Shown piece after piece: positions 14,972-22,095 of a stretch of DNA of 64,000 nt. The DNA lies in NCBI GenBank assembly GCA_018711925.1, contig DVHR01000001.1, positions 47-64,046 of the forward strand, read 5' to 3'. Origin of the DNA: Candidatus Coprenecus pullicola. Lineage in GTDB: Bacteria; Bacteroidota; Bacteroidia; Bacteroidales; UBA932. How positions within the stretch are numbered: position 1 is the first letter of the stretch; the number at the start of each line of letters is the position of its first letter. Position numbers and translations under genes: made by a program. The notes below the pieces were generated by a model. That model made no database searches. It saw only the letters and a program-made list of their open reading frames with translations, and was not told the DNA's origin.

Positions 14972-16594
14972 TTAAGACTCAGGCTCCTCCCAGACCGGCT
15001 CCCCGTCGTATTCGAAGGCAAACTCATCCACGTACATCAGACTGCCGATACCCCCGGTGAAAAAGTCCGCATACTTGCTGGCCACGGCAACCACGGCGCA
15101 GTATGTCGGCTTACGGTGGTCGCGGTACTTTATGTCTATCGAGAACTGCTTGTACTGACCGCCCGTACCCGTGCTGTCCACCAGTTCCCCGTAACCGATT
15201 ACGTCCGGGTCATTGACGTCGAGATACACGTGCTCATTGGTATTGACCCTGCAAGGTCCGTCCCATGCTGTCACGTAGACGAAGATATGACACCGGTCCA
15301 TCCGTCCGCCGATAGTATTGCGGTCAAAGGGAAGATCCACTCCCGACGGAGGATTGACATTGTCAATGGGCACAGGCTCGTAACTGTACCATCCGGTAAG
15401 CCTCAGCGGCCTGGTCTCGAACGGACGTCCGAAGAACACCTCGGCTCCAAGTCCCTGCACGCTTCCGAAATGGCCCGAGAACACATTGCCGCCGGCCATG
15501 GCTATCACGACCTTGACAGTCTCCAGCCTTGCGGCCATCTTGCCGTCACCGGACACCGCCAGAAAACTCTCCTCCGGAGAAGTCGGATTGGCCTCCCCGA
15601 TGATATTCGCACCTATATTACCGGAGTCCCACCAGTAACCCGCGTCCAGGTCAGGATTGGCGAACCAGCTCTTGCCGTCCTTTATCCACTGGTCAAAACC
15701 CATATTGGGCATCTGTGCGGCAGCCTCAGTAGTGAAGGTCTCCTCGCTGCCCTCCACATCTCCGGAATATATCCTGTAGACATATTCCGTTTCAGGCTCC
15801 AGACCTGTAAGATGGGCACTCACTCTCATGCCTGACACCTCCACTCCGGACACTTCCGTCCACTCGGTGTCCGAGGCCTTCCGGTACCTGAAACCAGGAG
15901 CCTCAGAGCCTTCGGGAACCATACCGTAAAGATAGGCCGAGTACGCCCACGCATCAGCCGGCTCGGTTGTCAGCGTCACTTCGCGGGGTATGACAGCCAT
16001 GGTCCACTCCTCCACAACATCCCTGTATGACACTGTAAACACCTGCGGTGAGGTAAAATCCCTGACCGACTCAGGAGCCGGAGTAATGACAGAGTTGGAA
16101 GGACCGAGTTTCATGTCCGTAATCTCAATGGAATCCAAAGGAGTATCCAAAGTCACGTAGACCACGGCCTCATGCTCGTCGGGATTGATGGAAGCCTCAC
16201 CTATCTGGTTGCGTACCCGGACATATCTCTCAATCGTCTGGGTGGCTGTCACAGTCCAGCGGTACACCTGCCCGGGCCATGTGGTCAATTCATAGTACAG
16301 TGGAGCCGACAGGTCGACAAAGGCTGTGTCGATGGCCGGAGACACAGTCGTATTGGAAGATGTCTCGAATCTGAGCAGGCGGACATGGCTCATAGTCACC
16401 GTATCAGCCATATCCACGGACACCGTCAACGCGGATGAGTCGATCACAGCCGCGGACAGCTGCCCCTGAACCTCAAACGCGGTTATAGTCCCCAGTCTCC
16501 TGGGATAAGGGATGTCATTCTTTATACATCCTGAAGCCGCAAGCAGAATTGCCGCGGACATCAGGGCGCAAATGATATTTTTCCTGGACGACAT
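14972..16594 (-). CDS. Lipoprotein with an Fn3 domain and a C-terminal PCMD-like domain
   Basis: 540 aa. Lipobox ASGC. Contains LTGLEPETEYVYRIY, then NMGFDQW...WWDSGNIGAN...YVDEFAFEY, which is shared with the paralogs. Confidence 0.8.
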   Translation of the reverse strand: MSSRKNIICALMSAAILLAASGCIKNDIPYPRRLGTITAFEVQGQLSAAVIDSSALTVSVDMADTVTMSHVRLLRFETSSNTTVSPAIDTAFVDLSAPLYYELTTWPGQVYRWTVTATQTIERYVRVRNQIGEASINPDEHEAVVYVTLDTPLDSIEITDMKLGPSNSVITPAPESVRDFTSPQVFTVSYRDVVEEWTMAVIPREVTLTTEPADAWAYSAYLYGMVPEGSEAPGFRYRKASDTEWTEVSGVEVSGMRVSAHLTGLEPETEYVYRIYSGDVEGSEETFTTEAAAQMPNMGFDQWIKDGKSWFANPDLDAGYWWDSGNIGANIIGEANPTSPEESFLAVSGDGKMAARLETVKVVIAMAGGNVFSGHFGSVQGLGAEVFFGRPFETRPLRLTGWYSYEPVPIDNVNPPSGVDLPFDRNTIGGRMDRCHIFVYVTAWDGPCRVNTNEHVYLDVNDPDVIGYGELVDSTGTGGQYKQFSIDIKYRDHRKPTYCAVVAVASKYADFFTGGIGSLMYVDEFAFEYDGEPVWEEPES

Positions 16595-16600
16595 GACTCA

Positions 16601-17401
16601 TCAGTTTTTTGACGCTGACGGCTTTTCGTTGAGCACCGGCAGCACGAAATTGATTCCTATGTTGATTGACAGCAGGTTGAGCTTGAAATTGGCCTTCGAT
16701 GTCTCATAACTGCCCTCGTACACCTGGTTGGTTGTCTGCGATATCCGCTTCCACTCCAGACCGAGTATGCCCACCGAGGCCTCCACACACATATCATTGG
16801 TCACGAAAATCGATATCCCCGGTATCACATCTATGCCTATGTCCAGAATTTTCTGGTAAGTTCCGGTAAGATTGTCGCCCGTCCCGGAAAGAGACTTGCC
16901 CTGTCCGGCTCCGAAGTTCAGGGATATGTCGCTGAATATTCCGAACACCCTGCTCTTTCCTATCGGTATATAATAACGGTAGGACACGGAACCGTAGTAT
17001 GTGTGCTGCAGGGTATAGAAATCAGATATCCCGAAGGAAAGGTCATCAGACAGAGATATATCGGTCTGGTCTACCCTTCCGAGCGTTCTCTTATAGGAAA
17101 ACTTTACGCCCACTGCCATATTCTTCGCAAAAGAGTAATATATACTGGGAGTGACAGAAAGAGTGTAGGCATTGATATTCATGTCATCAAGTATCAGGAA
17201 CGTGTAGTCATAGAAACTGTAGTCCCTGTACGACACCGTGCCTCCGAACATCAACTGTCCTTTGGGCATAAACACAGGCGCGTCCCTATGATCCAGACCA
17301 CGGTCAAACTTTTCCGCTCCCGTGGATGAGAACGGAAAAGCCGCAAGAAGCACTGCCAGCAGACAGAGCGCCGCAAAACTGATATTAGCCTTTTTTATCA
17401 T
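16601..17401 (-). CDS. Small outer-membrane beta-barrel protein (predicted)
   Basis: 266 aa with a signal peptide. Alternating hydrophobic/aromatic strands run throughout (VSYRYYIPIG, ISLNFGAG, LSINIGINFVL). The start overlaps the upstream stop (ATGA). Confidence 0.65.
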   Translation of the reverse strand: MIKKANISFAALCLLAVLLAAFPFSSTGAEKFDRGLDHRDAPVFMPKGQLMFGGTVSYRDYSFYDYTFLILDDMNINAYTLSVTPSIYYSFAKNMAVGVKFSYKRTLGRVDQTDISLSDDLSFGISDFYTLQHTYYGSVSYRYYIPIGKSRVFGIFSDISLNFGAGQGKSLSGTGDNLTGTYQKILDIGIDVIPGISIFVTNDMCVEASVGILGLEWKRISQTTNQVYEGSYETSKANFKLNLLSINIGINFVLPVLNEKPSASKN

Positions 17402-20325: not shown

Positions 20326-20352
20326 TTTAATAGATTTTAAAGGTTTTAGTTT

Positions 20353-22095
20353 TTATTCATACATAAGTTCTATATCGTCCACGGTCAGGATACTGCCGCC
20401 ATGTACATTGGCCGACAGACCGCCACCGTAGATGATGTCCATACCGTACTGCCATTTATCCTTTCCTGAACCGCAGACAAACTCCACATATATAGTATCT
20501 GCCTTCAGGTCTGTCACGGTATAATTTATATCCACATAGACCTGCGTCCACGAGGAGACTGAGGACGAAGATGTGAGCGTGCCCTCTCCTATCACCGTTT
20601 CTCCGCTCTTTACCGAGATATAGGCCTTGAAACTGTCCGAATCATACGGTGAGTATTTGTACCAGAAGCTCATCCGGGTCGGACGAGAGGCGAAAGGACG
20701 GCCCTGCTCCCCGCCGTACACACCTGTGAATATACGGCCGAAACCGACAGTGGCTGAAGGTGCCGTCCCGCTTGTCGCCGTATTGCTTATGGCAATAGTC
20801 ATCATCTGGGCAGCCATGTTGCTTTCATGCCCCTCAACATAAGAGACCATCGGGAAACTCTTATAGGATGCACCGGTGTTGGTCCTGTTTCCGGGAGTTG
20901 TCTCAGAATTGTTGCAGTCCCACCACCTGGATTCCTCGTTCAGATAAGGAGCATAATTGGTCTGATATACATCATCCCCCCAGAACAATCCTGTCTTGTT
21001 CACATAGTATGTCCATTCGCTCCACTCCTCAAAGCCGGCATTCTCCACCTGCTGTGCTGTTTCGGTAGTGAACTCCTGCACGGACGAGACGGCAGACTTG
21101 TACCTGGCACGTATCTCATATCTGGTGGCAGGCTCCAGCCCGGTAAGCGTCACACTGTTGACGCTGCCGGACACCGATGAGGTAAAGGACGGACGGCTCC
21201 ATTCCGAAGCACCGTAGGCACGTACCTCCGGGTAGAGCTCTGCCGGATCTCCGTCTGTCGTCATATCCACATACACCCTGGTGGCCCAGACATCTCCGTC
21301 AGGGATGGCGGCAACATCCGCACCCGCATTGTCGGGCAGCATGTCTGAAGGCAGCTCAATATCTACCTGATGGTCGTCCGTAGCAGGGTCTATCGAGACT
21401 GTCAGAGAGACACCCTGGTCAGGCTTCCCGCCCGCATCTATCTTCAAGGTAATGAAATCTCCCGGCTCGCCGACAATCTCCTTTGAGTTGGTGAAGACTG
21501 AAGTCTCCCCGTCAGGGCCGGTCAGTTCCACAGAGACAGAAATATTGCCGCAAGGCAGGTATCCCGCTTCCCTACAGTCCTTATCAAAGACCAGTGAGCC
21601 GCGCGAAGTGCTTACAGTCGCCGTATATTCGGCATACTGTTTCCGGATATTGTCTCCGAACTCCACAGCTACCTTCACATTGCCCATACGGCAAGTCACG
21701 CTTACATCGGTCACCTGCTGAGGCTGCACGGTAAACTCCTGTTCTCCGATAAAGAAAAATGCATTGAATCCGCTCGCGGCAGAGTCACCGTAAGAAGCCC
21801 TCAATGTATAGGGTCCTCCGGCGTTCATCGCGAATACGGTACTCTCCTGCGCCAGATATTCGGCATAGGTGTCCCATCTTTTGAAAATAACTCCCTGCGG
21901 ATTGATAATCTCAATCTTGAAGTCTTCCGGACTGAGCTGTCCCTCCGCATCGGCCCTGGTAGCAGTCAGGTCCGTCAGCAGTTCCAGGCGGATACCGCCC
22001 ATTCCGGTCTCAAAAGGCACTTCTTCCCTGACAGAACAGGAAACAAGCGACACTAGGAGCAGGAGATACATTGGAAAAAATTTCGCTTTTCTCAT
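20353..22095 (-). CDS. Lipoprotein with a DUF4493-like N-terminal module, an Fn3 domain and a C-terminal PCMD-like domain (first gene of the operon)
   Basis: 580 aa. Lipobox LVSC. Contains VTCRMGNVKVAVEF, LTGLEPATRYEIRAR, then NAGFEEW...WWDCNNSE...TVDDIELMYE. Confidence 0.8.
   Translation of the reverse strand: MRKAKFFPMYLLLLVSLVSCSVREEVPFETGMGGIRLELLTDLTATRADAEGQLSPEDFKIEIINPQGVIFKRWDTYAEYLAQESTVFAMNAGGPYTLRASYGDSAASGFNAFFFIGEQEFTVQPQQVTDVSVTCRMGNVKVAVEFGDNIRKQYAEYTATVSTSRGSLVFDKDCREAGYLPCGNISVSVELTGPDGETSVFTNSKEIVGEPGDFITLKIDAGGKPDQGVSLTVSIDPATDDHQVDIELPSDMLPDNAGADVAAIPDGDVWATRVYVDMTTDGDPAELYPEVRAYGASEWSRPSFTSSVSGSVNSVTLTGLEPATRYEIRARYKSAVSSVQEFTTETAQQVENAGFEEWSEWTYYVNKTGLFWGDDVYQTNYAPYLNEESRWWDCNNSETTPGNRTNTGASYKSFPMVSYVEGHESNMAAQMMTIAISNTATSGTAPSATVGFGRIFTGVYGGEQGRPFASRPTRMSFWYKYSPYDSDSFKAYISVKSGETVIGEGTLTSSSSVSSWTQVYVDINYTVTDLKADTIYVEFVCGSGKDKWQYGMDIIYGGGLSANVHGGSILTVDDIELMYE

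Follow-up and report, generated by a model that had tools for sequence, protein, structure and literature searches.

The 64,000-nt window analysed here (the whole stretch of DNA, positions 47 to 64,046 of contig DVHR01000001.1 in Candidatus Coprenecus pullicola assembly GCA_018711925.1) carries a predicted five-gene operon at 14972-22095 that is built around a gene pair conserved across the class Bacteroidia, encoding a small beta-barrel and, directly downstream of it, a lipoprotein with a PCMD domain. It is this pair, rather than the set of five genes, that constitutes the conserved core; the three genes preceding it in the window encode lipoproteins that begin with a DUF4493 module resembling type V pilins in its predicted fold. 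We propose that the products form a surface lipoprotein-barrel complex carrying lectin-like heads on pilin-like stalks, a reading to which we give an even chance, and from the features described below we infer surface exposure, association of the proteins with one another, cleavage at a lysine or arginine and binding of a ligand. No description of the conserved core was found in the literature searched, the known kinds of system being surface-lipoprotein-barrel complexes and type V pilin-like adhesins.

The first-pass annotation of this DNA, made from the sequence alone, had suggested a survey of gene neighbourhoods for the pairing of barrel and PCMD genes. The loci surveyed (given L numbers) comprise 23 reference-genome loci found via the barrel, contigs with distant barrels, and regions of 20 kb taken from genomes sampled evenly over the order and the phylum, all annotated with hidden Markov models built from the window's own modules. 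When adjacency is tallied for barrel matches better than E 1e-16, leaving out those at E 1e-8 to 1e-14, 53 of 55 loci across the class have the barrel gene followed directly, on the same strand, by a gene for a PCMD lipoprotein, the exceptions being L124 and L125. The pair occurs without any DUF4493 gene in L006, L075, L078, L079 and L110-L113, and in other orders of Bacteroidia it is present in three of four loci (L126-L128), where it stands alone and the partner, at about 350 aa, consists of one immunoglobulin (Ig)-like domain and a PCMD. The matches left out of the tally are small outer-membrane proteins encoded by solo genes. Many Bacteroidales families have the three DUF4493 genes in addition to the pair, with the gene order unchanged, the full cassette reading DUF4493-Fn3-PCMD, DUF4493 with a g2-type head, DUF4493-Fn3-PCMD, one or two barrels, and Ig-Ig-Fn3-PCMD (g1, g2, g3, barrel and g5 in Table 1), and this order is kept down to 34-38% barrel identity. 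Since it recurs in many different families, the operon arrangement is more than chance. The barrel is often represented by two tandem paralogues of about 245 and 280 aa, the second with a short N-terminal extension (L025:9205-10822 and many of L060-L077), followed by a single g5-type partner.

Two of the surveyed loci have features of their own. At L110:10774-12399, in the cultured isolate Prolixibacteraceae bacterium Z1-6, the barrel partner is split into a 165-aa Ig-like frame and a 296-aa PCMD frame, which may reflect a frameshift or a sequencing error, and a phosphate-selective porin gene lies just upstream. L023, the most distant full cassette, has a DUF3575 protein ahead of the operon (246-1670) and extra DUF4493 proteins of 255, 274 and 696 aa after it (L023:9891-15291); the two shorter ones correspond approximately to the domain alone and could be stalk-like subunits.

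Table 1. Features of the operon, followed by two nearby lipoprotein genes outside it; positions are those of the window
Feature	Position	Strand	Description
g1	20353-22095	-	580 aa; lipoprotein, Cys20; DUF4493 31-249, Fn3 ~255-348, divergent PCMD ~349-580; T-R47-A in beta1-beta2 loop
g2	19150-20325	-	391 aa; lipoprotein, Cys20; DUF4493 46-251, S-K52-S in loop; then alpha/beta C-domain of ~130 aa without family
g3	17398-19134	-	578 aa; lipoprotein, Cys21; DUF4493 33-250, V-K51-A in loop; Fn3; PCMD 357-575
Barrel	16601-17401	-	266 aa; signal peptide, KFDRG...PVFMPKGQ segment, then 8-10 long predicted strands in residues 49-255
g5	14972-16594	-	540 aa; lipoprotein, Cys23 (CIKNDIPYP); two Ig-like, Fn3, PCMD 300-526
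Putative -7 promoter box, Bacteroidetes type, TACTTTTG	22133-22140	-	38 nt upstream of g1 start codon
PCMD lipoprotein	7842-9656	+	DUF5018-like, Calycin_like, Ig-like, PCMD; context, outside operon
Fimbrillin-like lipoprotein	9763-11352	+	Mfa_like_1; context, outside operon

The five genes span the interval, with intergenic gaps of 27, 15, -4 and 6 nt; these gaps and the gene positions are exactly those first reported, and the g3 stop codon overlaps the start codon of the barrel gene (ATGA). The TACTTTTG box ahead of g1 is the sole TAnnTTTG on the minus strand from 14972 to 22140, in keeping with the single box described previously. The next such box on this strand, at 14906-14913, lies ahead of the lipoprotein gene after g5, and that gene therefore has its own promoter. 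TAnnTTTG boxes number 31 in the window against 17.4 expected by chance, and a scan for sigma-70 promoters and terminators gave signals no more than chance level. By their tight spacing, the overlapping stop and start codons and the single -7 box, the five genes are a predicted single operon. Lipoboxes are present in four of the five proteins (g1, g2, g3 and g5), with acidic residues soon after the cysteine. In the lipoprotein export signals of Bacteroidota, acidic residues following the lipidated cysteine fit surface display, and g1, g2, g3 and g5 are probably displayed on the cell surface.

Domain searches bear out the modular architecture that the first-pass annotation had read from the proteins. 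Pfam DUF4493 (PF14900, gathering cut-off 27 bits), the family it had named for the shared N-module, matches g1 (E 1.6e-46, 159.4 bits), g2 (2e-39, 136.2 bits) and g3 (3e-46, 158.5 bits). PCMD (PF13201, cut-off 28 bits), to which it had assigned the C-domain of three operon proteins, matches g3 (3.8e-45, 154.9 bits), g5 (2.4e-36, 126.1 bits) and, as a partial and divergent copy, g1 (7.4e-8, 32.9 bits); the fourth copy that it placed in the protein at 7842-9656 is matched as well (1.5e-54, 185.7 bits). Both shared modules are thus backed by Pfam, and the sequence motifs listed for them are present in the proteins, C112 and N116 of the VxC..N.KV motif in the DUF4493 module being nearly invariant. 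Pfam matches to Fn3 are weak, and they are backed by a profile of g5 orthologues that matches the Fn3 domains of gp130, Tie2 and contactins. The modules that had been set apart as other, namely the C-domain of g2 and the N-module of g5, matched no Pfam family and are unrelated to the shared modules by hhalign, with probabilities of <=1.1% for the g5 N-module against DUF4493 or Mfa2 and for the g2 C-domain against PCMD or DUF4493. The organism's own genome holds five PCMD genes and four DUF4493 genes, the fourth of the latter on another contig (L024:1485-2579, C6) and fused to DUF6359. This gene is solo, among unrelated metabolic genes and with no adjoining barrel, so the DUF4493 module is also used barrel-free.

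The 266-aa protein matched nothing in Pfam or NCBIfam, and its sequence matched nothing in the PDB. An AlphaFold model computed with 44 relatives (mean predicted local distance difference test score, pLDDT, 78.7) places a signal helix ahead of long antiparallel strands over residues 49-255, which DSSP divides into ten segments, 8 or 10 strands both being possible. Foldseek aligns the model with generic small outer-membrane barrels (OmpA, OmpW, NspA, OpcA, Pla, autotransporter and FapF) at query-normalised TM-scores of <=0.46, and the general OMP_b-brl Pfam model touches three of the 44 family members. Its relatives end in an aromatic F-Y-[FLI], an ending that also fits an outer-membrane protein. 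As proposed from the sequence originally, the protein models as a small outer-membrane beta-barrel, and it represents a large family without a Pfam model: a profile search of 1.84 billion representative proteins returned 1834 clusters (defined at 50% identity) at E <=1e-3 and 282 at E <=1e-30. The family is present in 48 of 401 sampled Bacteroidales genomes, and the barrel is single-copy in its own genome. A DRG...F(V/M)PKGQ segment just ahead of the first strand is kept family-wide. N-terminal extensions of low complexity are present in many of the clusters. Some members (P0237, P0232, P0256 and P0227) have N-terminal extensions of 100-340 aa ahead of the barrel, which are Lys/Glu/Ala-rich or otherwise of low complexity and in which no domain was matched.

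The partner of the barrel, g5, looks like a glycan-binding surface lipoprotein in its sequence relationships. Its first Ig-like domain has a profile match (2.4e-9) to the DUF4960 protein of the levan utilisome (8a9y, 8aa0 and 8aa2, chain T), and its PCMD matches the solved PCMD proteins 4jrl, 3s30, 3hbz and 4het at 1e-26 to 1e-29. These structural genomics entries, of 342-360 aa, share the C-terminal domain of g5 and, with their Ig-like and PCMD domains, are built like the minimal barrel partners (L078, L079, L112 and L126-L128, about 350 aa), which they also match in size. The proteins of the window have further domains, namely Fn3, a second Ig-like domain or DUF4493. In the levan utilisome, the surface glycan-binding protein occupies the SusE/F position and is like g5 a lipoprotein with N-terminal Ig-like spacers and a C-terminal beta-sandwich binding head; the membrane partner is a small barrel in the operon and a 22-strand TonB-dependent transporter in the utilisome. 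PCMD proteins that adjoin a barrel have strongly conserved residues after the lipidated cysteine, namely CI(K/E)NDIPYP in the large form and C(I/V)xE(D/E)(Y/F)FGKS in the minimal form, while those without a barrel neighbour have a different motif at this position; the conserved motif could be a docking or export signal. In the literature searched PCMD is mentioned only in passing. Several microbiota-reactive T-cell receptors are listed with a PCMD protein of Bacteroides caecimuris as their antigen (PMC13648455), which would suit proteins of this type that are plentiful and exposed to the host.

The first-pass annotation saw no pilus-assembly genes nearby, a picture that needs changing in that the DUF4493 module looks pilin-like. 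An AlphaFold model of g2 (pLDDT 77) has as its best Foldseek matches in the PDB 4h40, 4gpv, 5cag, 3up6, 3gf8, 3pay, 3ufi and 4k4k, at E 1e-6 to 2e-5 and probability 1.0, with TM-scores of just 0.3-0.4 for this one predicted model. Low TM-scores are expected of a three-domain model with free hinges, but they restrict what can be claimed from the matches. The top 15 matches are mostly Bacteroides structural genomics entries named 'putative cell adhesion'; among those listed, 4gpv is a shaft pilin and 3pay and 3gf8 are anchor pilins, with 3up6 among the fimbrial relatives (PMC5789003). A second and independent feature points the same way. An alignment of 116 DUF4493 domains from all loci shows a first strand of the form G-x-L-x-L-x-L followed by a variable loop with a column that holds Lys or Arg in 93% of the domains, with Thr before it and Ala or Ser after it; this column sits 27-32 residues past the lipidated cysteine and corresponds to R47 of g1, K52 of g2 and K51 of g3. 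A lipobox is present in 104 of the 116 DUF4493 proteins of relatives. In the type V pilins Mfa1, Mfa3 and Mfa4, cleavage at Arg49, Arg43 and Arg54 in the same loop removes the lipidated first strand (PMC5789003).

The subunits of type V pili, such as FimA-E and Mfa1-5 of P. gingivalis and the FimA/Mfa-like pilins of Bacteroides, are lipoprotein precursors like g1-g3, with two tandem beta-sandwich domains, which the modelled fold of DUF4493 may share, and with a first strand followed by a conserved loop Arg or Lys approximately 25-30 residues past the lipidated cysteine, and tip-type subunits can carry extra binding domains. DUF4493 differs from type V pilins in being shorter, at about 220 aa, and in that all operon copies are fused to large C-terminal domains; moreover, the operon includes a dedicated beta-barrel that canonical fim/mfa operons lack, and has no Mfa2/FimB anchor. 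In g1-g3 Pfam reported DUF4493 and none of the pilin families P_gingi_FimA, Mfa2 and Mfa_like_1, and no paper mentioning DUF4493 was found in the literature searched. The module thus resembles a type V pilin in its modelled structure and may be matured like one, without being classed as a member of that family.

In the assembly that we propose, the operon would encode proteins that come together at the cell surface, on the outer side of the outer membrane. The small barrel and its constant partner g5 would be the base, the barrel serving as a membrane-embedded anchor or assembly partner of g5, a putative role comparable to that proposed for BT1926 with BT1927 and in line with other surface-lipoprotein-barrel complexes of Bacteroidota, and g5 being a surface lipoprotein in which two Ig-like domains and Fn3 precede a lectin-like PCMD head. 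The DUF4493 modules of g1, g2 and g3, with a predicted two-sandwich fold and a Lys/Arg loop motif like those of type V subunits, would form stalks that keep the head at a distance from the membrane, the head being Fn3-PCMD in g1 and g3 and of a different kind in g2. Binding of an external ligand, be it a glycan or the surface of another cell, would be the most likely role of the assembly, and neither degradation nor import of a substrate would be expected of it. The first-pass annotation had likewise suggested a surface complex with a dedicated barrel, which fits the conserved synteny and the module-level mosaicism described below, although the unit that is kept is the barrel and PCMD pair; its alternative of an export system found no specific support. 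Its statement that the function is undescribed agrees with the literature searched, as far as which the system is unstudied.

Several observations count against such an assembly. The barrel may be a channel, and we only infer its contact with g5. The likeness to pilins comes from a single AlphaFold model, with the TM-scores given above; a DUF4493 profile searched against PDB sequences found no pilin and nothing significant, and hhalign of DUF4493 against an Mfa2 alignment made from relatives gave a probability of 4.9%. The conserved Lys/Arg could be structural rather than a cleavage site, and a search for a gingipain-type protease found none in the organism's own genome, although it matched no control genome either. 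The solved PCMD structures are labelled only 'putative glycoside hydrolase', and no ligand of a PCMD is known. The background divergence among close relatives is also uneven, the AMP-ligase gene being only 85-87% identical in two of them, and the mosaic pattern is therefore only suggestive.

A closer relationship to pili can be framed in two ways. The operon may encode a barrel-anchored relative of type V pili, in which subunits are cut at T-[K/R]-[A/S], with loss of the lipid anchor and the first strand, and then held on the cell by strand complementation onto a base of barrel (perhaps a BT1926-like oligomer) and PCMD protein; we think this improbable, yet it deserves some weight. If true, the barrel and PCMD base would be a second way to anchor pilin-type subunits, and a function would be assigned to a class-wide module on which no literature was found. 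Somewhat less probable is a true variant of the type V pilus, with DUF4493 cleaved at Lys/Arg, the lipidated first strand lost and a short fibre formed by strand exchange, in which the barrel and g5 replace the Mfa2/FimB anchor. The pilin-like predicted fold of the g2 model and the conservation of T-[K/R]-[A/S] at the maturation position (PMC5789003) are what such a variant would show, stand-alone DUF4493 proteins of 225-290 aa in L023, L027, L061, L066, L073, L076 and L077 are possible stalks, and the DUF3575 protein precedes the cassette in L023. However, the three DUF4493 modules of the window all precede large domains, leaving no free C-terminal donor strand apparent, and no stalk subunit, stand-alone pilin or Mfa2/FimB-type anchor was found in the operon. 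There is no profile link to the pilin families tested, the Mfa2 model matching canonical pilus genes elsewhere in the organism's own genome and none of g1-g3, in line with the hhalign result, and minimal barrel and PCMD pairs work without any DUF4493 gene.

The nearest precedent for the base of the proposed surface complex is the S-layer system of Bacteroides thetaiotaomicron. BT1927 is a phase-variable S-layer lipoprotein whose homologues adjoin a predicted beta-barrel gene (PMC4611039), and BT1926 is described as an 8-stranded barrel and putative anchor or secretion partner of BT1927 in a paper that counts surface-lipoprotein-barrel complexes as a hallmark of the phylum (PMC12578637). The BT1926 superfamily comprises proteins of 203-288 aa that have been modelled as radial tetramers to hexamers enclosing a hydrophobic chamber (PMC12228718), CHU_0007, EII40_06770 and HMPREF9455_00941 are listed relatives of BT1926, and eight BT1927-type loci alter phage susceptibility (10.1101/521070). 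As in BT1927-BT1926(-BT1925), a surface lipoprotein gene lies directly beside a small barrel gene, the barrel and g5 genes being 6 nt apart; the BT1926-type barrel, of approximately 250-290 aa and with no known enzymatic role, is like that of the operon in size and description only, and clusters of the operon's barrel family at about 288 aa bear only metagenome-assembled, Rikenellaceae, Alistipes and Prolixibacteraceae names. The two systems differ in that the barrel gene here precedes its partner, in that the partner is a 540-aa Ig-Ig-Fn3-PCMD protein rather than a lattice protein of about 100 kDa, and in the addition of three pilin-like lipoproteins. An invertible promoter flanked by inverted repeats and a nearby tyrosine recombinase, as expected of a BT1927-type locus, are absent here, where the upstream neighbour is parE. 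Phase variation of the operon was considered and rejected, the promoter showing just a weak A/T-rich 16-nt inverted repeat and no recombinase lying beside the operon.

Divergence among close relatives is concentrated in particular modules, as would be expected of exposed parts of the surface. In a nucleotide comparison of the window with L001-L003 and L021, identity reaches 95-98% in P7, P8 and parE, which flank the operon, while the g3 PCMD is about 70% identical in L001, L002 and L003, the g2 DUF4493 73% in L003, the g2 head 73% in L001, the barrel 78% in L003 and 81% in L021, and the Fn3-PCMD of g5 79-80% in L021. This pattern is suggestive of a module-by-module allele replacement typical of structures seen by phages or the host, and it lends some substance to the domain shuffling that the first-pass annotation had noted. 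It also bears on the possibility that the operon specifies a protective surface coat of the BT1927-BT1926 kind, in which lipoproteins held by an oligomeric barrel change susceptibility to phages or host defences. The precedent of a lipoprotein beside a small barrel with effects on complement and phage, a size range of the BT1926 superfamily that is that of the operon's barrel family, and an allele replacement that includes the barrel and suggests diversifying selection would all suit a coat; the lack of an invertible promoter and adjacent recombinase, and lectin-like heads on stalks that are unlike a single lattice-forming protein, do not, and we regard a coat as unlikely.

The possibility that the barrel is a narrow channel, with PCMD lipoproteins catching substrate above it in the manner of a miniature SusCD capable of TonB-independent capture and uptake, appears slightly less likely again. 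The constant adjacency of barrel and PCMD lipoprotein, the resemblance of g5 to glycan-binding proteins and the presence of OmpW-type channels among the top structural matches by TM-score are compatible with it, as are GH2 beta-galactosidases, a sulfatase or an anaerobic sulfatase maturase adjoining the cassette in some relatives. PCMD proteins are also found in settings resembling polysaccharide utilization loci, and in L027 the cassette lies directly downstream of SusC/SusD genes on the same strand. This is the one surveyed locus in which a SusC/SusD pair is directly beside the cassette (L067 has a SusC-like gene approximately 3 kb downstream), so SusC/D genes are not a constant of the neighbourhood. 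No SusC or SusD gene was found across the whole 64 kb, and the window and most relatives differ from Sus-type loci in having no SusC/SusD, enzyme or regulator. Against such a device, none of the surveyed loci points to a transporter of the inner membrane, an enzyme or a regulator that constantly accompanies the cassette, whose neighbours vary by family, 8-10 strands make too narrow a barrel for oligosaccharides, and three different heads on long stalks suit adhesion better than the gating of a pore. That the genes are mere neighbours, encoding independent surface lipoproteins and an unrelated small porin with no complex between them, is very improbable, for although related small barrels occur solo at E 1e-8 to 1e-14 and DUF4493 and PCMD proteins are also found away from barrels (L024:1485-2579 and window 7842-9656), the same order of overlapping or near-abutting frames is found in many and distant families and the barrel and PCMD pair is kept across orders.

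The surface complex that we favour would join three things usually treated apart, namely a small barrel, lectin-like PCMD heads and a type V pilin-like module. Few kinds of surface-lipoprotein-barrel complex have been described so far, though such complexes are a hallmark of Bacteroidota (PMC12578637). For the question of how type V pilins are delivered to the surface and anchored, a pilin-like module constantly accompanied by a dedicated barrel would be a direct test case. The strain-level swapping of heads and barrel suggests a structure seen by phages or the host; if so, it would have relevance to colonization and to phage host range in gut Rikenellaceae and their relatives.

The flanks of the cassette differ between families. 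In the window, the genes upstream of the operon are divergent and encode parE, an acyltransferase and an AMP-ligase, and two lipoprotein genes with their own promoter (13745-14758 and 11793-13730) lie downstream of g5. The first-pass annotation had described the neighbourhood as free of Sus-like and pilus-assembly genes, and this stands for SusC/D throughout the 64 kb; it does not stand for pili, given the Mfa_like_1 gene in Table 1 and the pilin-like DUF4493. Among the carriers of the cassette, L007, L011 and L012 are relatives labelled Alistipes. In Coprenecus-like and Alistipes-like relatives (most of L004-L014) a gene for a protein of about 410 aa directly follows g5 in overlapping frames (L008:12321-13556, L012:12405-13664 and L004:12412-13548). 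Its product is an anaerobic sulfatase maturase (TIGR03942, 435 bits, above cut-off), which is absent from the window, where the two downstream lipoprotein genes occupy its place. GH2 beta-galactosidases lie beside the cassette in three families (L061:1292-5107, L070:17606-19999 and L068:331-5034), the L061 and L070 copies having a Laminin_G_3 insert and L068 having a sulfatase as well; these GH2 and sulfatase neighbours may be a hint of host-glycan use, or a coincidence. In L027 (GCA_963649225.1, CAVJHF010000001.1) a convergent GH16-SusD-SusC set follows the cassette. The start of parE is given as a GTG at 22156 in the list of open reading frames, an ATG at approximately 22222 being more likely, and with the latter an intergenic region of about 126 nt is shared with the operon promoter; a plus-strand TAAATTTG box is present at 22184-22191. 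A second run of minus-strand lipoprotein genes, at 27676-32957 of the window, includes a BACON and Omp28 protein (28993-30399) and an Fn3 protein (30418-31953).

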